Source: a virus
Length of the DNA stretch: 64,000 nt
Direction: 5' to 3' (one strand)
Virus record (IMG/VR): IMGVR_UViG_3300041955_000884
Coordinates: 32,001-96,000 of that record
In this document: one piece after another, positions 14,321 to 52,138 of the stretch
Layout of the letters: every line of letters begins with the position of its first letter
Position numbering within the stretch: position 1 is the stretch's first letter
The notes under the pieces: model-generated
Told to the model about the DNA's origin: nothing
Databases searched by the model: none
Seen by the model: the letters and a program-made list of their open reading frames with translations, nothing else
Translations under genes and position numbers: made by a program

Positions 14321-15012
14321 CAATCGGCTGCCAGTTTCAAGACCGCAGCCCCTTGCCTGTCTCTCCTGTCGAGGACGCGCCGGAACACATCGAGGACGAG
14401 GTCGTCCCCGTAGTTCGCGAGCGCTCTGTTCAGAATCCAAATGACCAGGCGGCAGTTGCTCTGCGTGTACGGACCGCCGGGATTGATGCGGTCGATTGAG
14501 GGAGAGAACGGCGACCACCGGCCTTCTCGGCGGAATTCGAGGCCAGACATTTCACAGGTCCCACGCGCAAGACGTTCGTTCATCCACGCTTCGGTGAGGT
14601 CACAGTCTATTCCGGCCTTCCGCGAGCGCTTCTGGACAGCGCGTAGGATATTCCTGCCCCAGTGACGGCTGTAGCTGCGGTTGCAGATGCGCTTGAAAAA
14701 ATCTGGATCCTCGGCCAGCTTCTTGGCCTCGTACGCCTCCCGCTTAGCCTTTCCTTCTGGTGATGCGTTCCGGGCGCGCGCGTACTCTGCTCGCTCTTCC
14801 TTGTGCTGGGCCGCCCACTTTCGATTCCTCTCTCGAATCGCATCTGCATTCTTCTCGCGGCTTCGCTTGCTGTACTCCCGCGTCCTCTCGGGACGCTCGC
14901 GCGCCCAGCGGGCGTTTGACTCGCGGCGCTTGTTCCCAGGCTCATGATAAAGCTCGCGGCGGCGCGCTTTCTGAGCTTCCGTGCGCGGTCGGCTAATTCG
15001 CGGAGTCGCCAT
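14320..15012 (-). CDS. HNH-type homing endonuclease
   Basis: Basic helical N-terminus; CEMSG...SPSIDRINP..PYTQSNCRLV..ILN. Confidence 0.8.
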   Translation of the reverse strand: MATPRISRPRTEAQKARRRELYHEPGNKRRESNARWARERPERTREYSKRSREKNADAIRERNRKWAAQHKEERAEYARARNASPEGKAKREAYEAKKLAEDPDFFKRICNRSYSRHWGRNILRAVQKRSRKAGIDCDLTEAWMNERLARGTCEMSGLEFRREGRWSPFSPSIDRINPGGPYTQSNCRLVIWILNRALANYGDDLVLDVFRRVLDRRDRQGAAVLKLAAD

Positions 15013-15016
15013 TCTG

Positions 15017-18000
15017 TTACTCGCTGTCAACGTCGTCCCCGAGCCTAATCGAGGTCACAATCGAAAGCAAGTTCAAGGGGATAGGGGCGGTCTGTTGGAC
15101 GGCGATCTGACCACCCGGCTGATTCCAGGCATCAACGACATCACTAAAAACGTCTCCGCTAAAAAGTTCGAAGGGTTGCTGCGGGCTGAGGCTGTTCGGC
15201 GGCTGCTGGAGGCCGGAGAGGTTGGTCCAGGGCACGTTCACTTGGCCCGGCTGCGTCGCGGCATCTGGCTGGTTGGCGCCAATCTCGAACGGGAAGCCGC
15301 TGCCGGCCAGCCGCACCACGGCGCTGTCGATGAGCTTGCGGCGCCCCTGGACGGTCGCCGGGCCTGGGATGTCGAGATAGAGCGTCTGGAGCTGGCAGGT
15401 GAAGCCGAGGCCGACGACAACCTGCGAGGCTGGCTGCGGCAGACTCACAGTGCCGTTCACCACCTTCTGCGGCGCTACCACTACGCCATCAGCAAGGATG
15501 GAGACCTGATTTCCCTCGAGGTGATTGAGGCCATAGACCGTCAGCACCGGGGCAGTGATGGTCCAGCCGCCAGCTCCTACGGGCACGGCGGTGTTCAGCG
15601 GGTCGTTCGGGATGGACGGCGCGGCGTCGCGCGTCACCTCGGCGATGAGGGTGGTCGAGTTCACGAACTGCTGCACGGTCATCGTCCGGCCGTTCATGCG
15701 GATGACATCGCCCGGTTCGCCCTGGCCTGGGGCGTTGGCGAAGACGGGCGCGGAGGCGGTCACTGTCGTCAACGGCACCGAGTAGATTTCCACCGCGGCG
15801 TTCCCGCCCGCCCCCGTCGGGTCGATGATGTTGAACGCCGGGGTCGAGTAGCCGTTGATGTTCCCCCCGATGGCCGCCGTGGTGACGATTCCGCCGCTCA
15901 CGGTCACGGCCGCGATGCACCCGGAGCCAGTGCCGCTGGTGTCCAGCACTTCCGCGTAGGTTCCGGCCGAGTAGTTGGATCCTCCGTAAAGCACATGCCC
16001 AGGCTGGCCGCCCAACTGAAGCGTGAGAACGCCGGAAGCCGAGGACACCGTGAGCGTGGCATTCGGCGAGTTCTGCGGCAGCGACAGCCCGGCGTCCACG
16101 CACCATGCGTCCTCCTGGTCGAGCCAAAGGCGGTTGTCCATGCGCTCCTGGAAGTAAGCCCACACCGGGTTGCCGTTGTTCTGGATGAGCCGCTGGACGA
16201 TGAAGTAAGGGGCGTTCACCGGCGGCTCGGACACCACGGCAACGGACTGGAACAACCCGTTGGTGTCATGGCGCGTCCAGGCATAAACGTCCTGTTCCTT
16301 GAGGTACGTCAGGCAGAGCAGGGTGCCGTCGTTTCTGACAGCCCAGATGAGCTTGTTCGGCTCCTCCGCCCAGCCCCACTGCACGATGGTGAAGCCGTCG
16401 AACAGATGGTTCGACAGCACCGTCATGTCCGTGCCGGTGTAGATGTTGACGAAGAAGTTGTAGCTCAAGTCTCTGACGATGCTGCCCTTTTCCTGGACGT
16501 AGATGATGTCGTAGTTGATGGGAATCGGGGGCACCGTCGGCGAGCAGCCGTTGTACGCCTGCGGGTTCGCCACCTGGTCGGCCGGGGTAATCGCAGCAGA
16601 GGTCGCCAACCCGGAGCCGGCGCCGGACACCTGCCACGCGCCGAGGCCAGTGAAGATGACGAGGCCGCCCGGCATGTTCAGCATCCACAACACGCCGTTG
16701 ACCTGCTGGCTCCAGGGCGTGCCGATGATGGCGTCGGAATCCACCACGGGGTCCGACACGTCCATGTTCGTGAACGCGCCCGGCTGGCTCATGTAGTAGG
16801 TTTCGGGGTTGTTCAGCGTGGCGGCATAGACGCGCCGCTGCTGGAAATAGGAGACGACGGACGGGAACGTGCCCGTCGCCGGCCCAATGCTGGTCGTCGC
16901 CGAGGCCCCGCTTCCCGAGCCGGTCCCGTCGCTGATGACGACGGCCTCGCCGCCCGTGTAGCCGGCGCCTGCGGTGTCAACGACAATCCACGCAATCTCA
17001 CCGAACAGCGCGCCCCCGACGCCGATCACAACGGGCGTGAGGGCGGCATTCTGGCCGATGGGGCTTGTCACTGTTGCTGTCGTCGCCGTGATGCTGTAGC
17101 TCGCATTGCCCGTTGAGGTCACCGCCACCGCCGTCACCGAGGACGTGGCGAATGGGTTGCTGTGCAGCGGCGGTCCCGTCGAGAAGTCCGGCGTCACGTT
17201 GGTGTCGGCGAAGGAAGGCCCGAAGGCGGTCCCGATGTAACCGAACAGGATGCCGGCCGACGGCGGCGCACCGTAGGTCGCCGGCCCACCATAGAAGTTG
17301 TAGGAACCGGCATTCGCCACCGTGGCGAGGTTCACCGTGATGGTGCCGGCCTGCGTCGAGATGTCCACCGACGCCGCGATGGCCACCGGGGAGGCAATGC
17401 TTTCCTCCCCCGTCGAGGCATCAATCGCCGTGCCGCAGAAGGAGTAGTAGAAACTCGGCGTCCCCGCCGACGTGTTCACCACGTAGCTGATGGAGGCCGG
17501 CGGCCCGATGGAGGCCACGAACGAAGTCGTCGTCAGCGTCCAGTTCGAGTCCGTGATGCGGGCGAGGTCCATCGGCGGGTATTCGGCCTGCGTCGCCTGG
17601 TTAACGCACGTCAGGGACATTACGTCCGCAGACTGAGCCCACTTCAGGTCGGGAAGGTCCGCAGCCGCGTAGGGCGTGGCGAGCGTGTAGATGCGCTCGG
17701 CTGTCCCGCCCGAGGTGTATGGGCCTTGACCGAGCGTGCTCACCGTCGTCCCGTCGAGCACGTCAACGAGGGTGAACGTGTTCGTCGTCGTGTTCGACAC
17801 CTCGAAGGAGCGGTTGTTGAGCTGCGGAATCCCGCCGATGCCCTGAAGGAACACCTCGTCGCCATTCACGTAGCCGTGGGCAACGTCGGTCACCACCGAC
17901 GGGCTGGCCGACGTCACGTTGGTGATGGTCGAAGCGCTCTCGGTGACATAGCCGCCGTTGATGACGAAGCGGAAATAGTTGTCGCCGGCCTCGATGACGA

Positions 18001-43607: not shown

Positions 43608-44573
43608 TCACGGTGCTCCCGTAACACTAACCGCCTTCGTGCCGAGGAGGCGCCAAGCGCCCTGCCAGAAGGCGCAGAGCTCGAGCAGGTAGTCTCCCGC
43701 TGGCAGCGCGAACACAGCCTCGCCAGCCGTGCCGTACGCCGCGGCGTAGCTGATGCCGCTCACCGGCCTTCCGTTCCAGTAGCCCTTCCCGGCGGCGTCG
43801 AGCACGTTGACGCATGACCAGTCCCCGCCGGTGTCCGTCCAGACGAGCATCAACAGGCCGAGGATAGCGGAGCCGACGGTTATGGTTCCGGTCGGGTAGC
43901 CGAGCGCGGCCCCCACGATGGGATCCAGCGTGGCGAACATCGCCTGAGCCATCAGGTCGTAGCCGGATTGATTCGGATGGATGCCACTCCAGACGTTGAA
44001 CATCTCAGAGTAGGACAGATCGGCGTGCCATGCGGCGCCCATCGCCTCCGTCTCGGCGTTGAAGTCAACGAGCGAAAGGCCAGCCGCCTGAGCGGCGCCG
44101 CGAACCATGGCCGCTTTGTCGTCGATGACGGCCGAGGCCCACGACGCATCGACCGCGTTCGGCGTCTCCAGCACGAGGCGCTTGCCAGCGGCCTGCGTGA
44201 GACGGACGATCTCGGCCAGCGGCGCCTGTACAGCCGCCGGCTCGTCGTTCATGCCGAGCGACAGCAGGACGACCGAGGCTGGAGTCGCGGCGACATATGC
44301 CAGCCAGGAGTTCGCCACGCCGCCGGTGCCATCGAGCCAGTTCTGGAAAGTCGTTCCCGATACCCCGTTGTTGTTGACGACCACCAGCGGCCCGTATTTC
44401 GCCTGGAGAAGCGCCCCAAGACCAGCCGGTGCTGGCGTCGCCACGACCGAGGAAACCGTGCCGTCGGCGCCGGGGGCCGGACCCGTGCTGGCGCCGTCGA
44501 ACGTCAGCCCGAAAACCGTGCTGTCGCCATTGACGTCAACGACGAGGGGACTCGATGCGCTAGATTCGGTCAC
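43608..44573 (-). CDS. SGNH/GDSL hydrolase
   Basis: GDST, NGVSG, GMND, GIHPN..GY. Confidence 0.85.
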   Translation of the reverse strand: MTESSASSPLVVDVNGDSTVFGLTFDGASTGPAPGADGTVSSVVATPAPAGLGALLQAKYGPLVVVNNNGVSGTTFQNWLDGTGGVANSWLAYVAATPASVVLLSLGMNDEPAAVQAPLAEIVRLTQAAGKRLVLETPNAVDASWASAVIDDKAAMVRGAAQAAGLSLVDFNAETEAMGAAWHADLSYSEMFNVWSGIHPNQSGYDLMAQAMFATLDPIVGAALGYPTGTITVGSAILGLLMLVWTDTGGDWSCVNVLDAAGKGYWNGRPVSGISYAAAYGTAGEAVFALPAGDYLLELCAFWQGAWRLLGTKAVSVTGAP

Positions 44574-45175
44574 GGAGCCAACTCCACGTTGTGATACAGC
44601 CACGAAGCAAAATCCGCGCGTGTCTCGCTGTCAAGGAACTCCAGCCCGGCCCTGAGCAGCTCCGCCGTCGTCGGCTGCCGCGGCGGCTTCAGCGGCCGCA
44701 GGGGGGTGCCCTTCTTGCCGGAGTAGTTCGCTGGCCGGTCACGCTTCTCGACGTTGCACCTCACGCAGCAGCTCAGGATGTTGTCCCACACCGTCTGGCC
44801 GCCAGCCGCCCGCGGGATAACGTGGTCAAACGTCAGATCCTCGCTCTGGAACCGCTCGCCGCAGTACTGGCAGCGGTAGCGGTCCCGGAGGAGGATGGAG
44901 CGGCGACAGAACTTCGGCGCCGCATTGATTGGCGCGTACGACCGGAGCGCCACCACCTTCGGCACATGAATCGTGGTCGACGGCGAGCGGAACACCTCCG
45001 GCCACTCGTCCACGACGGTCACCGTCTCCTTGAAGACGGCGCGGATGGCTTCCTCGGGGCCGATAAGCGAGAGCGGCCAGGTACTTAACGGCCGAAAGTC
45101 GCTGTTCAGCACGAGACAGCGGCGCGCGTGGCGGTCGCGTCTATCAGGCTCAGCAGTGGCGACGGCGGTGCTCAT
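44570..45175 (-). CDS. HNH endonuclease at the 3' end of the tRNA array
   Basis: LVLNSDFRPL, LRDRYRCQYCG, DHVIPR..GG...WDN....C..CN..K. Confidence 0.92.
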   Translation of the reverse strand: MSTAVATAEPDRRDRHARRCLVLNSDFRPLSTWPLSLIGPEEAIRAVFKETVTVVDEWPEVFRSPSTTIHVPKVVALRSYAPINAAPKFCRRSILLRDRYRCQYCGERFQSEDLTFDHVIPRAAGGQTVWDNILSCCVRCNVEKRDRPANYSGKKGTPLRPLKPPRQPTTAELLRAGLEFLDSETRADFASWLYHNVELAP

Positions 45176-45215
45176 GCGCGGCCTCAGCGGCGAATACGTC
45201 CACTATCGCACGGAA

Positions 45216-45290
45216 TGGTGCTCTCGGGCAAGAATCGAACTGCCGTTTACCGCTTACGAGGCGGTAGTCCTGCCACTGAACGACGAGAGC
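45216..45290 (-). tRNA. tRNA-Thr(CGT)
   Basis: ACCGC-CT CGT AA-GCGGT; CCA encoded. Confidence 0.85.
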
Positions 45291-45328
45291 GTATTGAGCC
45301 GGTTAACTGGCTGCGTTATACTGCGCCT

Positions 45329-45772
45329 ATGCCCCACCGCACCAAAGAAGAAAATGTCGCTGGCGTCCTAGCATGGCGGCGCCGCGCGAAGCTGCGACTT
45401 ATCGAGGCGTTCGGTGGCGGCTGCGGCATATGCGGATATAACCGCTGCGCCGCTAACATGGCGTTCCATCATCTTGATCCGTCTCAGAAGGGCGTCGGAT
45501 TTGGAAGCGCTCAGTCTCGCTCCTGGGCGAAAGTGATACACGAGGTCAGAAAGTGCGTGATGCTGTGCCACAACTGCCACGGCGAATATCATGCCGGCCT
45601 TATCACTGACCTTTCCGCTTGCCCGCGCTTCGATGAAACGTGCGCCACCTACAGCACCCGACCAACGAAAGGGAAGACGCGGAGAACTGGAGGATTGGGA
45701 GGGAATCGAACCCGTCCTATGACGCAGATTAAGAGCCTGCCGGCCTCACCAGAGTGCCAACCAATCCGCTAG
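45329..45772 (+). CDS. HNH endonuclease, antisense within the tRNA array
   Basis: C.ICGY..C...FHHLDP..K...KC.MLC.NCH.E.H; promoter TTGAGC-N17-TATACT-N6-ATG. Confidence 0.85.
   Translation: MPHRTKEENVAGVLAWRRRAKLRLIEAFGGGCGICGYNRCAANMAFHHLDPSQKGVGFGSAQSRSWAKVIHEVRKCVMLCHNCHGEYHAGLITDLSACPRFDETCATYSTRPTKGKTRRTGGLGGNRTRPMTQIKSLPASPECQPIR
45688..45767 (-). tRNA. tRNA-Lys(CTT)
   Basis: GCAGG-CT CTT AA-TCTGC; CCA. Confidence 0.8.
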
Positions 45773-45849
45773 TGGTGCATGTCCCGAGATTCGAACTCGG
45801 CCTGTGCGGGATTTGAAGCCGCCGCCTCCTGCCTCTGGGCTAGACATGC
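45773..45849 (-). tRNA. tRNA-Leu(CAA), short variable arm (TCA register possible)
   Basis: GCGG-CTTCAAATC-CCGC; CCA. Confidence 0.6.
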
Positions 45850-45853
45850 GAAC

Positions 45854-45925
45854 TGGCCTCGCCGCCCGGATTCGAACCGGGAAGCCCAACCTTCGGAGGG
45901 TCGGGTGCAGTCCATTGCCGGCGAG
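45854..45925 (-). tRNA. tRNA-Arg(CCG)
   Basis: CGACC-CT CCG AA-GGTTG; CCA. Confidence 0.8.
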
Positions 45926-45929
45926 AAAC

Positions 45930-46000
45930 TGGTGCCCCGTGCAGGGATTCAACCTGCCGTCTTTGGCTTAGAACGCCTAGGCCGTCGCAGCGGACGGGGC
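45930..46000 (-). tRNA. tRNA-Arg(TCT), atypical
   Basis: GGC-GT TCT AA-GCC; acceptor GCCCCGT; CCA. Confidence 0.6.
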
Positions 46001-46005
46001 GAGCA

Positions 46006-46078
46006 TGGACCTCCCGGGACGAATCGGACGCCCTCATCGAGTTTCGTAGACTCAAGTCCGCAATCCAGCGGCGGGAGG
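46006..46078 (-). tRNA. tRNA-Arg(ACG)
   Basis: TGAGT-CT ACG AA-ACTCG; CCA. Confidence 0.8.
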
Positions 46079-46082
46079 AATT

Positions 46083-46157
46083 TGGGGGCGCGTGCGGGGG
46101 TCGAACCCGCCTCTCTCGGGTGAAGGCCGAGGCATCTCGCCGGAAATGTAACGCGCC
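46083..46157 (-). tRNA. tRNA-Glu(TTC)
   Basis: CTCGG-CC TTC AC-CCGAG; CCA. Confidence 0.8.
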
Positions 46158-46162
46158 GAAGT

Positions 46163-46237
46163 TGGTGGAGCTGACCGAAGTCGAATCGGTGTTACGAGAC
46201 TGCCAGCCTCGCGTCCTTGCCACTGAACGACAGCCCC
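46163..46237 (-). tRNA. tRNA-Ala(GGC)
   Basis: G3:U70; CGAGG-CT GGC AG-TCTCG; CCA. Confidence 0.85.
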
Positions 46238-46312
46238 GAAGCTGTGGTCGGCGTTTGATGCCTATATCCGCCGACACGCCCCATACATGGCAAGGGCGGC
46301 GCCTCGTCAAAC

Positions 46313-46387
46313 TGGTGAAGGGCGTTGGAATCGAACCAACCGTCTCCGCCATGTCAAGGCGGTGCTCATCCGATAAGCTGGCCCTCC
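46313..46387 (-). tRNA. tRNA-Val(GAC)
   Basis: CCGCC-TT GAC AT-GGCGG; CCA. Confidence 0.85.
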
Positions 46388-46388
46388 G

Positions 46389-46459
46389 TACCTCGCCGTC
46401 GAATCGAACGACGGTATCCGCGGTGTGAACGCGGCGCCCTGCCATTGAGCGAGCGAGGC
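46389..46459 (-). tRNA. tRNA-Val(CAC), CCA not encoded
   Basis: CCGCG-TT CAC AC-CGCGG; abuts the next tRNA. Confidence 0.8.
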
Positions 46460-46463
46460 AAAG

Positions 46464-46538
46464 TGGTCGGGGATGCAGGAATTGAACCTGCGTCGCCGCC
46501 TTCCAAGGGCGGAACCTGGGCCACTAGGCTAATCCCCG
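46464..46538 (-). tRNA. tRNA-Pro(TGG)
   Basis: CCGCC-CT TGG AA-GGCGG; CCA. Confidence 0.85.
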
Positions 46539-46542
46539 TAGA

Positions 46543-46613
46543 TGGCGCCCCCGGCTGAAATCGAATCAGCATTCCTTGGCTTAGGAAGCCAGGGCCGCTC
46601 CATCGGCGGGGGC
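46543..46613 (-). tRNA. tRNA-Arg(CCT)
   Basis: TGGC-TT CCT AA-GCCA; CCA. Confidence 0.8.
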
Positions 46614-46617
46614 AATC

Positions 46618-46695
46618 TGGTCAGCGTGCGGTGATTCGAACACCGGCTCTCGTGCGCCCGAGGCACGCGCTTTGGCCTGGCTAAGCTACACGCTG
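46618..46695 (-). tRNA. tRNA-Pro(CGG)
   Basis: CGTGC-CT CGG GC-GCACG; CCA. Confidence 0.85.
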
Positions 46696-46702
46696 TCGAA
46701 GC

Positions 46703-46778
46703 TGGCGCCCCAGACGGGTTCCGACCCCGCCAACATCGGCTTGACAAGCCGAGACCCCCGCCAGGGAGAATCTGGGGC
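46703..46778 (-). tRNA. tRNA-Asp(GTC)
   Basis: TCGGC-TT GTC AA-GCCGA; G73; CCA. Confidence 0.75.
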
Positions 46779-46782
46779 AATC

Positions 46783-46864
46783 TGGAGGACGGCGGAGGTG
46801 ACGATCCCCTTGCGGCCGGATTAAAGGTCCGGTCCAGCGCCTCGCTGGTATACGCTCGCCGTCC
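46783..46864 (-). tRNA. tRNA-Lys(TTT), atypical D arm
   Basis: CCGGA-CC TTT AA-TCCGG; CCA. Confidence 0.65.
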
Positions 46865-46869
46865 GAAAG

Positions 46870-46944
46870 TGGTTGCCGCACGCGGTACTGCCCCGCGAGC
46901 CTCTCGCTTATCGGGCGAGCGCACGACTTTCATGCTCTACGGCA
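46870..46944 (-). tRNA. tRNA-Ile(GAT)
   Basis: CTCGC-CC GAT AA-GCGAG; non-canonical T loop; CCA. Confidence 0.75.
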
Positions 46945-46945
46945 A

Positions 46946-47030
46946 TGGTGAGTTGGTGTGGTGCTGCCCCACGCGCCCGAAGGCGAAGGATTTACAGTCC
47001 TCCTGCCGGAGCTGCCGGCTTTACCAACCC
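46946..47030 (-). tRNA. tRNA-Tyr(GTA)
   Basis: GAGGA-CT GTA AA-TCCTT; variable arm; CCA. Confidence 0.8.
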
Positions 47031-47036
47031 GTGAAC

Positions 47037-47107
47037 TGGAGCCGCGTCTCGGTGTTGCGCCGAGCCTCCGTCCATACCAAGGACGGGTGCAGACTGCTGC
47101 GCGCGGC
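47037..47107 (-). tRNA. tRNA-Thr(GGT)
   Basis: CGTCC-TT GGT AT-GGACG; CCA. Confidence 0.75.
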
Positions 47108-47110
47108 AGA

Positions 47111-47198
47111 TGGTGGAAGGCCCCGAGCACGATTCGGACACCTTTCGGTGCGCACGGTTTAGCAGACCGGCCCCGCAACCTTACGGGCTGTGCCTTCC
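47111..47198 (-). tRNA. tRNA-Ser(GCT)
   Basis: CGGT-CT GCT AA-ACCG; long variable arm; CCA. Confidence 0.8.
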
Positions 47199-47204
47199 AG
47201 AAAG

Positions 47205-47294
47205 TGGCGGACGGCGGCTAGTGCTGCCCTGCAAACCCGTTGGGGTCTCATCGGTTTTCGAGGCCGAGCCGCAGACTGCTGCGGGTCACCGTCC
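47205..47294 (-). tRNA. tRNA-Ser(CGA)
   Basis: TCGG..CT CGA AA..CCGA; long variable arm; CCA. Confidence 0.75.
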
Positions 47295-47406
47295 ATGTGC
47301 GCTCCAGCGCACTGTATCGCGGCTAATGTGCTCTTGAGAGCCGATTTTGCGGGCGCCGCATTCGCTGCGGTCGTTCAAGACTGGAGGCGGAGGCCAGCCC
47401 CCATAG

Positions 47407-47494
47407 TGGCGGAGAGCGGGCGCGCACGATGCCCATGCCTTGCGGCACCAGCCGGGTTCAAACCGGCGGTCGGAACCTTCCGACTTCACTCTCC
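47407..47494 (-). tRNA. tRNA-Ser(TGA)
   Basis: GCCGG-TT TGA AC-CCGGC; variable arm; CCA. Confidence 0.8.
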
Positions 47495-47498
47495 GTAA

Positions 47499-47586
47499 TG
47501 GCGGGCGGCGGGCGCAGTCGAAGCCCTGGCCTTTCGGCCTCATCGCGCTTCCAACGCGAGCCGGCGACCCCGCCGGTTCACCGCCC
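47499..47586 (-). tRNA. tRNA-Ser(GGA)
   Basis: TCGCG-TT GGA AG-CGCGA; variable arm; CCA. Confidence 0.8.
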
Positions 47587-47590
47587 AAAC

Positions 47591-47675
47591 TGGTAGCCCA
47601 CGAAGGAGTTGCACCCTCACGCCGCGATGGCACGAGTTCCTAAGACTCGCGTGTCTGCTGTTCCACCAGTGGGCC
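47591..47675 (-). tRNA. tRNA-Leu(TAG)
   Basis: CGAGT-CT TAG GA-ACTCG; CCA. Confidence 0.85.
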
Positions 47676-47680
47676 TAACT

Positions 47681-47764
47681 TGGTACGCCCGGGGAGAGTT
47701 GCACTCCCACGTCATGCGACACAACGCCCTCAACGTTGCGCGTCTGCTGTTCCGCCACGGGCGC
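47681..47764 (-). tRNA. tRNA-Leu(GAG)
   Basis: CAACG-TT GAG GG-CGTTG; CCA. Confidence 0.85.
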
Positions 47765-47765
47765 T

Positions 47766-48275
47766 CTATTTCGGTGCTGGCCAAATGTCGGCCAGGGTCG
47801 GACGACGCTCGCCGAGGACGAGCGACAGCCTGGATTTCGAGTGCGCTGGCGCTAGGCGGTCGAGCCGTTGCGCAGGCTGGGGCACATTGGCCAACGTCGC
47901 CTCCGAGATCGGCTCGGCATATTGGCCAATCTTGTGCAGGCCCCAGGACGCCGCGACGTGGAATTCGGGCTTGCGGGAGCCAGACGGACCCGGCTTCGCC
48001 ACTGCTCTGACGCACGCCACCGCGCCCCAGCAGTGGCCGCAGGCGGCGCGGAGGTTGTTGCAGTGCCCGCAGACGAGGTGGTGCATTCTCGTGCCCGTGG
48101 GATACTCGTAGCGCCTCGTGCGCGGCAGGATGTGGTCCCGCGTGGCGCTCCGCTTGGCGTGGCCCTCGGGCAGCATCGGGTCGCCGCACTGGGGGCAGCA
48201 GACGGTCTCGCCCATCGCCTTCGCGAGGTCGAACAGGAGCAGCTTCCTCTTCGTGAAGCCCTGCGGCGCGCTCAT
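47766..48275 (-). CDS. HNH-like endonuclease within the tRNA array
   Basis: CPQCG..M, ATRDHILP, CGHCN; promoter TTGCCT-N16-TAGGCT-N6-ATG. Confidence 0.7.
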   Translation of the reverse strand: MSAPQGFTKRKLLLFDLAKAMGETVCCPQCGDPMLPEGHAKRSATRDHILPRTRRYEYPTGTRMHHLVCGHCNNLRAACGHCWGAVACVRAVAKPGPSGSRKPEFHVAASWGLHKIGQYAEPISEATLANVPQPAQRLDRLAPAHSKSRLSLVLGERRPTLADIWPAPK

Positions 48276-48313
48276 GGCGGAAGCCTACCACGCTCGGCGC
48301 CGGAGGCAAGATG

Positions 48314-48397
48314 TGGTGCCGGCGGCAGGCATCGAACCTGCACGCTGCGCGCGGCCCGGTTTAAGCGGGCTGGGTCTACCGATTCCCCCACGCCGGC
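48314..48397 (-). tRNA. tRNA-Leu(TAA)
   Basis: GCCCG-CT TAA AC-CGGGC; CCA. Confidence 0.85.
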
Positions 48398-48400
48398 GAT

Positions 48401-48475
48401 TGGTGGCGCTAGGGGGATTTGAACCCGCCCTTTCCCGGTTGAGAGCCGAGCGGCCTGCCAATAGCCGATAGCGCC
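48401..48475 (-). tRNA. tRNA-Glu(CTC)
   Basis: CTCGG-CT CTC AA-CCGGG; CCA. Confidence 0.85.
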
Positions 48476-48479
48476 GAAA

Positions 48480-48554
48480 TGGAAGCGGGTGCCCGACTCG
48501 AACGAGCGTGAAGGAGGTCAAAGCTCCCCGTCCTGGCCGCTGAACGAACCCGCC
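48480..48554 (-). tRNA. tRNA-Gln(TTG)
   Basis: GGGAG-CT TTG AC-CTCCT; CCA. Confidence 0.8.
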
Positions 48555-48559
48555 GCGAT

Positions 48560-48664
48560 TGGTAGGCGATGACGGTGCCGACCCGTCTCGAACGCCGCCA
48601 GTGCGTAAGGGACCGTCGCCCCCTGGGCCGTCGCCCGCGTTCTGCCCAGCCGGGGCAATCGCCT
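48560..48664 (-). ncRNA. tRNA-like RNA with a branched domain replacing the anticodon loop
   Basis: Acceptor AGGCGAT/ATCGCCT-A-CCA; D and T arms present; no 7-nt anticodon loop. Confidence 0.65.
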
Positions 48665-48702
48665 GCCGAGTTTCTAGCACGTCACATCCGATACCGCAAT
48701 AG

Positions 48703-48776
48703 TGGAAGCCGACCAAGGTGTCGAGCCTTGCCCGACGAGCTTCAGAGGCTCGCGTGCCCAGCCGGGGCGATCGGCC
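48703..48776 (-). tRNA. tRNA-Gln(CTG)
   Basis: CGAGC-CT CTG AA-GCTCG; CCA. Confidence 0.8.
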
Positions 48777-48779
48777 GAA

Positions 48780-48858
48780 TGGTGCTCCTGGCCGCGATTC
48801 GAACGGGCGACCCCCGGGATACAAAGCCGGTGCTCTGGCCAGACTGAGCTACAGGAGC
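48780..48858 (-). tRNA. tRNA-Thr(TGT)
   Basis: CCGG..TT TGT AT..CCGG; canonical D/T arms; CCA. Confidence 0.8.
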
Positions 48859-48859
48859 T

Positions 48860-48936
48860 TGGGGTGACATGCCGGTACCGCCCCGGCCCAAACTGGGCTC
48901 ACAACCCAGCGCAATCGCTTGCCTGCCCATGTCACC
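48860..48936 (-). tRNA. tRNA-His(GTG)
   Basis: G-1:C73; CTGGG-TT GTG AG-CCCAG; CCA. Confidence 0.8.
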
Positions 48937-48944
48937 ATACGCAA

Positions 48945-49323
48945 TCCATCCCGTCGCATCTATGCTCGCCTCGGTGTTACCCGTGGCTAGCCGTATCGCA
49001 CGGCGAACGGGAGCCGGGGCTACCGTCTGTTTCAACGGTGTCGCCGGAGAGGTTTCGAGCCGGCATCGCTATGCTACGGCGGCATCGAAGACGGCTTGCC
49101 GCCGGCGGAGGGGTTAATCCCGCGCATCACCACCCTGGGTCGGGCTCCGCAATCCCCTGATGACTTAGCCGCTTCGCCGCCGGTTCCATGCCCAGCGCCG
49201 CTCGAAAGCTCCCTGCGGGCTAGCCTCGGCGCGCATCCGAAGCCAAGCTGGGCCAGCCTTAGAACCACCGCAGCGCTGGCCCGTCGCCCGCGTGGAAGGC
49301 TTCGCGTCTGTCCGCGATGCCGC
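48945..49323 (-). ncRNA. Large structured ncRNA, possibly GOLLD-like
   Basis: About 380 nt with no credible ORF; many helices including GCGGCATCG/CGATGCCGC long-range pairing. Confidence 0.6.
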
Positions 49324-49330
49324 AGGAAGG

Positions 49331-49406
49331 TGGAGAAGCGCCACAGAGTCGAACTGCGTGATGCGGGGTTGCAATCCGCCACCCAAGGCCGTCGGGTTCG
49401 CGCTTC
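49331..49406 (-). tRNA. tRNA-Cys(GCA)
   Basis: GCGG..TT GCA AC..CCGC; U73; CCA. Confidence 0.8.
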
Positions 49407-49411
49407 AATCT

Positions 49412-49485
49412 TGGCAGGGGCGTGAGGAATTGGACCCCATCTAGCTGGGTTGGAGCCAGCCGTGCTGCCGTAACACTTCGCCCCC
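49412..49485 (-). tRNA. tRNA-Trp(CCA)
   Basis: GCTGG-CT CCA AC-CCAGC; CCA. Confidence 0.85.
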
Positions 49486-49489
49486 AAGT

Positions 49490-49564
49490 TGGCTCCAGAG
49501 GCAGGACTTGAACCTGCAACCTCACGGTTAACGGCCGTTTGCTCAGCCATTGAGCTACTCTGGA
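49490..49564 (-). tRNA. tRNA-Asn(GTT)
   Basis: ACGG-CC GTT AA-CCGT; CCA. Confidence 0.85.
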
Positions 49565-49683
49565 AAACTCGTCTGGCGCTCGGCCCTCTCGGGCCAGACT
49601 TTCCGGGCTACCCACCAGCGCGTTGCCATGGCTCGCTGGCCTCTATCCGTTATGGACTCGGGGTGACCGAGTCACGCCATGCT

Positions 49684-49759
49684 TGGAGCGGGATGCCGGG
49701 GACGATCCGAGCTTCACTGGTTTGGAAGACCAGCACAGTTACCGAACTGCAAATCCCGC
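49684..49759 (-). tRNA. tRNA-Gly(TCC)
   Basis: CTGGT-CT TCC AA-ACCAG; U73; CCA. Confidence 0.8.
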
Positions 49760-50334
49760 GAAATGGTGCCAGCGCCTGGTTTCGCGCCAGGGTCTTCGCT
49801 TTTTCGGAGCGACGCTTCCACTAGGTTAGCTTCGCTGGCCATTGGCAGGGAAGTCCACGCCTTGCCGAGCTTGATGCGGCTTATCATGTCCTCCGTCACG
49901 CGAAAACTTGTTGCTATCGAACGGCCAGTTCGGCCAGATGCCAGGAAGCGGCGAATCTCATGCACATCACGCTCCGACAGCTTAGCGTTTCCATTTGACG
50001 CCCCCACGGAGGGCGGCAGGTTGCCCTTCGGGCGACGCCCCTTCCTGGCACTGTCCCGCATATTTTCGGCGTTCGTTCCGAGCCACAGGTGACGCGGATT
50101 GCAGCAGGGCGGGTTGTCGCAAGAATGGCAGACGCAAAGGCCGCAGGTCGGTCCCTTCGCTATCTCGTAAGCGACGGCATGTGCCCGCCGAGAGCGGAGC
50201 GTTGGCCTGCTTTGCTTGAACCGACCGTACCCGTCATCGTCAATCTGGCGAGTCCACGGCCAGCACTCGTCAGGCCCGCGGATGTCAACCTTTGACCAAA
50301 AGCGCGCAATCGCCTTATCGTCGTGAATAGCCAT
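49714..50334 (-). CDS. HNH homing endonuclease whose ORF reads into tRNA-Phe and tRNA-Gly
   Basis: RFWSKVD...CWPW, AH..AY, CHSCDNP.CCNP.HL.LGT..EN; GAGGAG SD. Confidence 0.9.
   Translation of the reverse strand: MAIHDDKAIARFWSKVDIRGPDECWPWTRQIDDDGYGRFKQSRPTLRSRRAHAVAYEIAKGPTCGLCVCHSCDNPPCCNPRHLWLGTNAENMRDSARKGRRPKGNLPPSVGASNGNAKLSERDVHEIRRFLASGRTGRSIATSFRVTEDMISRIKLGKAWTSLPMASEANLVEASLRKSEDPGAKPGAGTISRDLQFGNCAGLPNQ
49764..49839 (-). tRNA. tRNA-Phe(GAA)
   Basis: TCGCT-CC GAA AA-AGCGA; CCA. Confidence 0.85.
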
Positions 50335-50432
50335 ATCGGCCGTCTCCTCGGCTGGCGTGGTCAGGACCGCCGGGGCGTTCACAGCGCTCCGGCGGCCCGA
50401 GATTTCTAGTCGAAATGTCCAGCCGAAGCAAT

Positions 50433-50504
50433 TGGTTGCAGGGGAGCGAGTCGCACGCTCTGTGGAAAATTTATGAGACTTTCTGGCCTCTGAGGCTCCC
50501 TGCA
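50433..50504 (-). tRNA. tRNA-Met/Ile2(CAT)
   Basis: AAAGT-CT CAT AA-ATTTT; CCA. Confidence 0.7.
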
Positions 50505-50509
50505 ATAAC

Positions 50510-50583
50510 TGGTGGGCGCGCGACGAATCGGACGCCGGTCAAGCCTTTATGAGAGGCTCGCTCTTCCATTGAGCTACACGCCC
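50510..50583 (-). tRNA. tRNA-Ile2/Met(CAT)
   Basis: AGCCT-CT CAT AA-AGGCT; CCA. Confidence 0.8.
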
Positions 50584-50596
50584 GTCGCGTGGAATT

Positions 50597-50671
50597 TGGA
50601 GCTGACGCCCGGTACCGCCCCGGGTGATACTGATTGGCAACCAGTCCCGCAACCTTTCGCGGACCGCCAGC
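50597..50671 (-). tRNA. tRNA-Gly(GCC)
   Basis: ACTGG-TT GCC AA-TCAGT; U73; CCA. Confidence 0.75.
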
Positions 50672-50733
50672 TAAGACATGAACGAATCTCGCCCGACCTG
50701 GCGACGACACGGCCAGGTCGGGCATTCGTGAAA

Positions 50734-50808
50734 TGGTGGAGGCGCGGATAGTCGAAATCCGAGACAGCAATCTTGCAAGGATAGCCCGCTGGTCCGCAGC
50801 TCGCCCCC
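50734..50808 (-). tRNA. tRNA-Ala(TGC)
   Basis: G3:U70; CT TGC AA loop; CCA. Confidence 0.75.
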
Positions 50809-50860
50809 GTCGGGCCGCTTGGCAGGCGGCCCGTAGTCATGTGGACGTATTCACAGCCTC

Positions 50861-50898
50861 AAAGAACAAAAGCCCCCGAGAGTTTCCTCCGGGGGCTT
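50861..50898 (-). terminator. Intrinsic terminator (attenuator) upstream of the tRNA array
   Basis: AAGCCCCCGGAG-GAAA-CTCTCGGGGGCTT followed by TTGTTCTTT. Confidence 0.85.
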
Positions 50899-50934
50899 GG
50901 TCGTGTACGCTTCCACAGTCAAAGCCAGAAGCGG

Positions 50935-51057
50935 TTACAAGGCCAAGCCCTCGGCGTTCGGCTGATGCGTCGCGGACTTCCCGCCCAAGCTACGCCGCAC
51001 GGTGGGTTTTATGCCGCGTCGTTCGGCGTAGCCAGGAAAGGAGGTCCAGAGTGACAT
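50935..51057 (-). CDS. Putative leaderless leader peptide (40 aa) of the tRNA-array attenuator
   Basis: MSLWTSFPGYAERRGIKPTVRRSLGGKSATHQPNAEGLAL*; last codons and stop lie inside the antiterminator. Confidence 0.65.
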   Translation of the reverse strand: MSLWTSFPGYAERRGIKPTVRRSLGGKSATHQPNAEGLAL

Positions 51058-51064
51058 CGCTGCC

Positions 51065-51094
51065 CTTATGCGGGCGGCGGCGGGGGCGTGTCAA
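51065..51094 (-). promoter_or_regulatory. sigma70-like promoter of the tRNA array
   Basis: TTGACA-N18-CATAAG-N7-ATG. Confidence 0.7.
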
Positions 51095-51539
51095 GCCCTG
51101 AATCGCACCGGAGCGGCGCGTTCGCGATTTCGAGGAGGACGGTGGCGTGGCATGCTTGGTCCAGGCGGCACCAGCAGGCGAGGTCCTTGCCGCGAAGTTC
51201 GCGGCGCACATCATCAATGGTTGTCGCGTCCATGCTGGGAATTTTTCCTTTTGGCCATGGGAGCGCAACAGGAATCCACGCGCCTTCCTTGGCGAGCATC
51301 GAGCGGAACGCAGCAACCGCCAGTTGGGCGTCCATTGGAAAGCGCTGCCCATTCTGCATGCGATCAGAATGAACGACGAACGGATTGCCCCACTTCGATC
51401 CGCGTCCGACGTAGACGGCTCCCTCTGGCATCCGCCAGCCCTTCGTCCGGCGCCGCTGGATTCGCCGTGGAGCGAAGGCGCAGACGCGGGCCTCACGGCA
51501 GCGCGCTGGCCCTGGGCAGTAGTCGCATGCCTCGGTCAT
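51066..51539 (-). CDS. DUF4326-family protein
   Basis: VYVGRGSKWGNPF...ELRGKDLACWC...CHA.VL. Confidence 0.85.
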   Translation of the reverse strand: MTEACDYCPGPARCREARVCAFAPRRIQRRRTKGWRMPEGAVYVGRGSKWGNPFVVHSDRMQNGQRFPMDAQLAVAAFRSMLAKEGAWIPVALPWPKGKIPSMDATTIDDVRRELRGKDLACWCRLDQACHATVLLEIANAPLRCDSGLDTPPPPPA

Positions 51540-52138
51540 CAATCCGCCGCCTGGGCGAACAGCGGCGCGTCGCGACGCCGGAACACCGTGACGACCCGGA
51601 AGCGGTGGTTCGTGCTCTTCACCATGCCGATGACGGCTTCCATCTCGAAGGCGTCCTTGCGATACATCGGTAGCACTTGGTCGAGCCAGACGATGTGCGT
51701 TCCTGGCGCCAGCCGCCCCAAGGCGCTCATCACCGCATTTCGCTTCACCATCGTCGTCCGGTAGCGCTCGGCGTCCTCGACGGAGTAGGGCGGGTCGGCC
51801 AGAACAAGGTCGTAGCGCTCCAGTGGCACGCGCTCCAGCGTCTGGGCGTCGTCCACGAACGTCGGCGCCAGCTCCGCGTTCACGTCCACGGTATCGCCGG
51901 GCATCGCGGCAAGGTCCACGCGGCCAGAGAACAGGTGCAGGAGGCGCTCCTTGTCGGGGAACAGAGCCTTGATTCGTCGAAGATATCCGGCCGGATAGCC
52001 GCCGTAATAGGCCGACTTCACGCGGTAGTCGTTCCCCATAATCCAGGTGCCGACGACGCGGCCGTCCTCGCCGATAAACAGGCTCCGCGGAAAGCCCGTG
52101 GCGCGGACGTAGTTGTCGATGCGCTCCTGCCAGTTCAT
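51539..52138 (-). CDS. Small amino-methyltransferase (DPPY)
   Basis: YYGGYP.GYL, LHLFSG, LADPPYS. Confidence 0.75.
   Translation of the reverse strand: MNWQERIDNYVRATGFPRSLFIGEDGRVVGTWIMGNDYRVKSAYYGGYPAGYLRRIKALFPDKERLLHLFSGRVDLAAMPGDTVDVNAELAPTFVDDAQTLERVPLERYDLVLADPPYSVEDAERYRTTMVKRNAVMSALGRLAPGTHIVWLDQVLPMYRKDAFEMEAVIGMVKSTNHRFRVVTVFRRRDAPLFAQAAD

Follow-up and report, generated by a model that had tools for sequence, protein, structure and literature searches.

A 395-nt non-coding spacer in the tRNA array of an uncultured phage: a candidate RNA outside the GOLLD and ROOL families

The window considered here is a stretch of 64,000 nucleotides, i.e., bases 32001-96000 of the IMG/VR record IMGVR_UViG_3300041955_000884, which represents an uncultured phage with a genome of 107 kb and about 65% GC. 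It harbours a tRNA array for which ARAGORN reports 25 co-oriented tRNAs on the minus strand at 45216-50808, and which totals roughly 35-39 co-oriented tRNAs. A relaxed cloverleaf scan recovers tRNA-Cys and tRNA-His, as well as six further tRNAs overlooked by ARAGORN in its default mode (Table 1). Default ARAGORN does not report tRNA-Cys or these six, the majority of which also escape the Rfam tRNA model, as does tRNA-His; the tRNAs of the array are systematically non-canonical. The tRNA-Cys(GCA) was found by neither ARAGORN nor the Rfam tRNA model and yet exhibits in the relaxed scan 7 of 7 acceptor pairs, 5 of 5 T-stem pairs and the anticodon loop TTGCAAC. In the tRNA-Asn, the phage carries C at window position 49533 (position 33 of the anticodon loop), where the very abundant matching contigs in all four runs have the canonical U33 and reach, in soil, a depth of up to about 1000; from this comparison, the phage tRNA-Asn appears to differ little from a common cellular tRNA-Asn, of which it would be a copy altered by U33C.

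The array is interrupted by four HNH genes, and its large gaps other than the one described below are filled by HNH endonuclease genes. One of these genes, located between tRNA-Lys and tRNA-Thr(CGT), has a plus-strand coding sequence and is antisense to the tRNA operon. The gap at 45291-45687 was considered as a second non-coding element of roughly 400 nt and rejected, as its plus strand encodes an HNH endonuclease. ORF169, which also sits within the array, shares 61% identity with the corresponding protein of a relative devoid of such an array.

Table 1. Features of the tRNA array, of the spacer and of the syntenic place in a relative (window positions unless noted).
Feature	Position	Strand	Description
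Candidate RNA/spacer	48936..49330	-	Non-coding, non-tRNA; flat codon-position GC; without Pfam, Rfam or cloverleaf match
tRNA-Cys(GCA), upstream boundary	49331..49406	-	Encoded CCA at 49333-49331; hand parse and relaxed cloverleaf scan
tRNA-His(GTG), downstream boundary	48860..48935	-	ARAGORN and cloverleaf scan
Local hairpin GGGCCAGC/GCUGGCCC	49250..49282	-	8 bp, 17-nt loop; predicted pair probability 1.00, in MFE
Local hairpin ACCGU/ACGGU	49022..49039	-	Predicted pair probability 0.96, in MFE
tRNA-Gly(GCC)	50671-50597	-	Relaxed cloverleaf scan, not default ARAGORN
tRNA-Phe(GAA)	49839-49764	-	Relaxed cloverleaf scan, not default ARAGORN
tRNA-Ser(GGA)	47586-47499	-	Relaxed cloverleaf scan, not default ARAGORN
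tRNA-Ser(TGA)	47494-47407	-	Relaxed cloverleaf scan, not default ARAGORN
tRNA-Ile(GAT)	46944-46870	-	Relaxed cloverleaf scan, not default ARAGORN
tRNA-Asp(GTC)	46778-46703	-	Relaxed cloverleaf scan, not default ARAGORN
HNH endonuclease gene gap	about 49914-50432
ORF169, HNH-like	47766-48275	-	Motif CPQCGDP ... DHILPR ... CxHCN ... CGHCW; no Pfam match
HNH endonuclease	45128-45772	+	Motif C..C ... HH.DP ... C..LC.NCH...H
HNH endonuclease gene gap	44570-45175
Relative L019 (G001:C1)	14658-16172		Positions in the relative; compared with window 47766-51581; tRNA-Met between ORF169 homolog and DUF4326 gene

Between tRNA-Cys and tRNA-His, the minus strand carries a spacer of 395 nt with 67% GC, while tRNAs elsewhere in the array are separated by 0-5 nt; no other large piece of this otherwise tightly packed array is both non-coding and devoid of tRNAs. 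A reading of the sequence alone had placed here an ORF-free, structured RNA at 48945-49323; the stretch free of ORF and tRNA is indeed there, with bounds lying somewhat further out on both sides. Its GC content (0.67) is near that of the tRNAs (0.64), unlike the GC3 of the genes. That the spacer belongs to the co-oriented minus-strand tRNA operon is supported, and within it the minus strand showed neither a sigma-70-like promoter nor an intrinsic terminator consensus, in keeping with read-through transcription. An 18-mer of the spacer, ACGCGGGCGACGGGCCAG at 49276..49293 (minus strand), matches at 17 of 18 positions the segment 48640-48623, i.e., the insert of an odd 105-nt tRNA-like element of the array (48664-48560). 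The pair scores E=0.007 in blastn-short, and the pattern ACGCGGGCGACGG[G/C]CCAG has only these two copies in the 107-kb genome, with 0 mismatches to a pattern allowing G or C at that one position.

With respect to coding potential, the GC content of the spacer stays at 0.66-0.68 at each of the three codon positions, whichever of the six frames is taken, while the genes of the phage have a GC3 of 0.80-0.89 and a GC2 of about 0.5. None of nine stop-to-stop frames of the spacer matched Pfam at E<=1, and together these two results rule out a protein-coding gene, so that the absence of any credible ORF, as originally read from the letters, is borne out. The sole ORF set over the spacer by public gene callers (P0001) mostly overlaps the tRNAs, and a search of 5.8 billion proteins gave no homolog for it. 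By tblastn, none of the four HNH proteins encoded in the array matched the spacer, which rules out a relic of these HNH genes; a relic of G001 genes was likewise considered, and tblastx gave only noise. As for tRNA-likeness, neither a cloverleaf under relaxed rules, nor an intron-bearing tRNA (ARAGORN with introns allowed), nor a mimic of the acceptor, T-arm and CCA with inserts of up to about 400 nt was found in the spacer. A tRNA or tRNA-mimic cassette was discarded since there is neither a cloverleaf nor an acceptor stem with a T-arm ending in CCA. The same holds for a tmRNA, for which default ARAGORN was empty, Rfam gave no tmRNA match and the acceptor, T-arm and CCA arrangement is missing; when the ARAGORN threshold was lowered to 80%, only spurious permuted tmRNA calls made of neighbouring tRNAs appeared.

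Membership in a known RNA family was examined with cmscan against all 4227 families of Rfam 15, at the gathering score and then at E<=10 on 1.3 kb with permissive filters, and over the whole array at E<=1 with permissive filters. No Rfam family matched 48936-49330 on either strand at the gathering score or at E<=10, the RNase P RNA, group I and II introns and ribozymes included. GOLLD is a large non-coding RNA of phages, prophages and tRNA islands (PMC12286853, PMC6582537), and is found inside GC-rich tRNA arrays of Mycobacterium alongside HNH endonucleases (PMC6582537). The spacer resembles it in lying in a phage tRNA array, between tRNA-Cys and tRNA-His, and in its length of 395 nt, close to the 416 positions of the Rfam model RF02032; it differs from it in that many members of that family are longer than 800 nt, with a conserved 3' domain, while for the spacer no homolog came to light that would reveal a conserved part. 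ROOL, an RNA of phages and prophages, is often located near tRNA islands and its function is unknown (PMC12286853); its model (RF03087) has 574 positions and pseudoknots supported by covariation, and leaves the spacer unmatched. The sequence-only reading had suggested a resemblance to GOLLD and had proposed a cmscan for both families: the search found neither, and the resemblance is rejected, RF02032 being unmatched at the gathering score as well as at E<=10. Membership calls for a model score of at least 150 bits for GOLLD and 99.1 bits for ROOL. Single-model searches were concordant, with zero GOLLD candidates in the whole 107-kb genome and no match of ROOL on the phage; for the latter, the control genomes were silent too, and it is the all-family cmscan that carries weight. 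A very divergent GOLLD or ROOL RNA could still be imagined from the closeness in length to the GOLLD model and from the GC-rich mycobacterial arrays with HNH genes in which GOLLD is known (PMC6582537), but with neither model aligning on either strand at the gathering score or at E<=10 under permissive filters, this is very improbable.

The same early reading had described the RNA as highly structured and named eight helices, one of them of 9 bp closing a 5' domain. All eight pairs of complementary words are present where they had been placed, but only two of them, both local hairpins (Table 1), survive in the predicted ensemble. The remaining six, the 9-bp closing helix included, have a pair probability <0.1 in the Boltzmann ensemble, and enforcing all eight gives -167.8 kcal/mol vs -186.0 kcal/mol for the MFE, i.e., a cost of 18 kcal/mol. 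The word of the 9-bp closing helix, GCGGCAUCG, can pair just as well over 9 bp with a second word 18 nt further on, and a perfect 9-bp stem is present in 44% of dinucleotide shuffles. Perfect stems of at least 8 bp are in modest excess (6 in the spacer vs 2.2 +/- 1.4 in shuffles). One of these is the pairing of two copies of a palindromic 8-mer, some long stems are built on repeated words, e.g., CGAUGCCG and the palindromic GGCUAGCC, and several of the perfect stems of at least 7 bp, among them several of at least 8 bp, exclude one another through a common strand. The motif GGCGACGG is enriched throughout the window (19 vs 9.7) rather than in the spacer specifically. Judged from these predictions, the named helices are probably no more than what a GC-rich sequence offers by chance.

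In terms of overall stability, the MFE z-score of the spacer was -0.99, -0.75 and -1.27 in three runs, and its sub-domains scored -0.34, -1.04 and +0.98, while nine coding segments of the same length ranged from -1.5 to +2.1 and blocks of 3-5 tRNAs from -2.4 to +0.7. Since genuine tRNA blocks score no better than the coding controls, the z-score test has little power here, either way. Folding of the minus strand is more favourable than that of the plus strand by about 12 kcal/mol, and its energy per nt is the lowest among the segments tested. The description as highly structured is not supported, with z-scores inside the range of the coding controls in this low-power test and named helices that are thermodynamically unfavoured.

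Relatives of the spacer were sought in several collections. In GenBank phages, blastn recovered single tRNAs only and no homolog of the spacer, and no homolog was found in IMG/VR, JGI metagenomes or GTDB genomes. Exact 18- to 20-mers of the spacer or of the T-arm of tRNA-His gave nothing, or chance matches in unrelated genes, in IMG/VR, metagenomes and GTDB. Approaches through the neighbouring genes were also negative, namely (i) 80 loci with HNH_3 relatives compared with the spacer by blastn and nhmmer, (ii) the DUF4326 neighbour, and (iii) an alignment of ORF169 in JGI metagenomes and IMG/VR. In the closest relatives (IMG/VR, portal protein 89% identical in amino acids), the syntenic place holds one tRNA-Met and an ORF169 homolog but neither array nor spacer; in relatives at a greater distance (66-67%), tRNAs are absent from the vicinity, and the stretches of the IMG/VR portal relatives that were compared contain no tRNA array. 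From such sequence comparison, the whole array of about 35-39 tRNAs appears to be a lineage-specific gain, or to have been lost in the relatives; as it is absent from the nearest relatives, the array together with the spacer would be recent or plastic in the lineage.

Near-identical sequence occurs in runs from peat, wetland, lake and soil belonging to 20 studies, and the phage seems widespread in such samples. Two wetland metatranscriptomes contain identical short contigs within the spacer (49133-49324 and 49062-49211), at a depth of about 3-4, equal to that of the rest of the array and of the HNH genes, and some contigs bridge several tRNAs; parts of the array have no RNA contigs, and the depth over the spacer is low in run X6, two observations that carry no weight here. 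These contigs may stem from precursor RNA or from DNA carry-over. One variant contig from lake water shows five clustered differences at 48958-48980, all of them outside the helices that had been named for the 3' domain, an arrangement expected by chance with p about 0.12. One soil-metagenome contig seems to join the CCA end of tRNA-Cys (49331) to tRNA-Thr(CGT) at 45283, skipping 4,047 nt, i.e., the spacer and 3.6 kb of tRNAs; with a depth of 3.4, a shorter side of 50 nt and 85% likeness, it is no more than a hint and may represent either a chimera or a shorter version of the array that lacks the spacer.

The spacer encodes neither a protein nor a tRNA, falls in no Rfam family and shows no excess stability. 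The explanation preferred here, which is given roughly an even chance of being right, sees it as a by-product of the tRNA operon or a scar of array assembly, with helices arising by chance. Lying inside a co-oriented tRNA operon, the spacer would be transcribed together with the roughly 35-39 tRNAs and freed by their processing: trimming of the tRNA-Cys 3' end, with its encoded CCA at 49331, would free its 5' side, and a cut by RNase P at the 5' end of tRNA-His (48935) would set its 3' end. The released piece would have no function of its own. It would most likely have originated as a scar from the assembly of a fast-changing array ridden with homing endonucleases, and its possible helices would be those on offer in any sequence of 67% GC rather than a selected fold. 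Ordinary spacers of tRNA operons in bacteria and phages are comparable, as they are non-coding, removed by RNase P and 3'-end processing and devoid of a conserved fold, but those of the same array measure 0-5 nt against 395 nt here. Counting against the by-product explanation, a functionless piece of such a length is odd in so tight an array, and the tRNA-like GC content and the modest excess of stems of at least 8 bp point the same way; besides, as the z-score cannot part tRNA blocks from coding sequence, the missing folding signal is weak evidence.

A rival explanation is a new orphan class of structured non-coding RNA of roughly 400 nt, residing in a phage tRNA operon and released by tRNA processing, which would be an analogue of GOLLD and ROOL, or of the T4 RNAs C and D, while standing outside those families; this proposal, which proceeds by analogy, is tentative. 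Phage T4 encodes two stable RNAs, C and D (species 1 and 2), which are not tRNAs, are co-transcribed with the phage tRNAs and are cut out by the tRNA-processing enzymes. They measure about 120-140 nt, have tRNA-like ends and are of experimentally demonstrated stability. The spacer would share their release route but differs in its length of 395 nt, in lacking tRNA-like ends and in being known here from its sequence. In favour of an orphan RNA, the setting is one in which the large unexplained RNAs GOLLD and ROOL are known, namely tRNA islands of phages and mycobacteria, in company with HNH genes (PMC12286853, PMC6582537), and this is the sole large non-coding, non-tRNA piece of the array. The strand difference of about 12 kcal/mol with the lowest energy per nt, the excess of long stems, the identical contigs in two metatranscriptomes and the lake variant that spares the named 3'-domain helices, albeit at the chance level given above, would all agree with it. 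On the other side, no homolog came from any collection searched, hence no covariation; the thermodynamic signal is not above the controls and the predicted fold departs from the one first read; the depth in the metatranscriptomes is no different over the flanks and may stem from DNA carry-over; and close relatives do without the spacer.

The spacer could also be a cis-acting element of the DNA or of the precursor, such as an internal promoter, a processing platform splitting the array into two sub-operons, or a site of HNH homing or recombination. The HNH genes flanking it, by which such arrays are rearranged, would be in keeping with this, as would the 4,047-nt skip of the soil contig, which begins exactly at the spacer, albeit in a single contig of low depth and 85% likeness; but the minus strand lacks the promoter and terminator consensus mentioned above, neither iterons nor terminal inverted repeats were found in the spacer, and a site of this kind would be expected to be shorter than 395 nt, making this explanation unlikely. 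Ranked below it, and improbable too, is a decayed gene, namely the remnant of a homing-endonuclease ORF or of about five tRNA genes. For the latter, the length is roughly 5 x 79 nt, and short segments resemble the D-arm (49029-49012, 15/18) and the T-arm (49061-49050, 11/12) of tRNA-Gln(CTG), yet these matches are not collinear, have E>1 and come with no cloverleaf even under relaxed rules; the former is contradicted by the absence of residual GC3 periodicity and of any tblastn or Pfam signal.

The value of the check is negative in that the suggested resemblance to GOLLD fails and the helices are such as chance gives in a GC-rich sequence. A highly structured new RNA is unproven at this locus and less probable than a by-product spacer. 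By analogy with GOLLD or ROOL, the spacer might be the first member of a class of structured RNAs of roughly 400 nt in the tRNA operons of phages of peat, wetland and lake, released by the tRNA-processing enzymes and acting with the phage tRNA set during infection, which is a tentative proposition. Should it be a folded RNA, it would add one more uncatalogued large RNA beside GOLLD and ROOL in phage tRNA islands.
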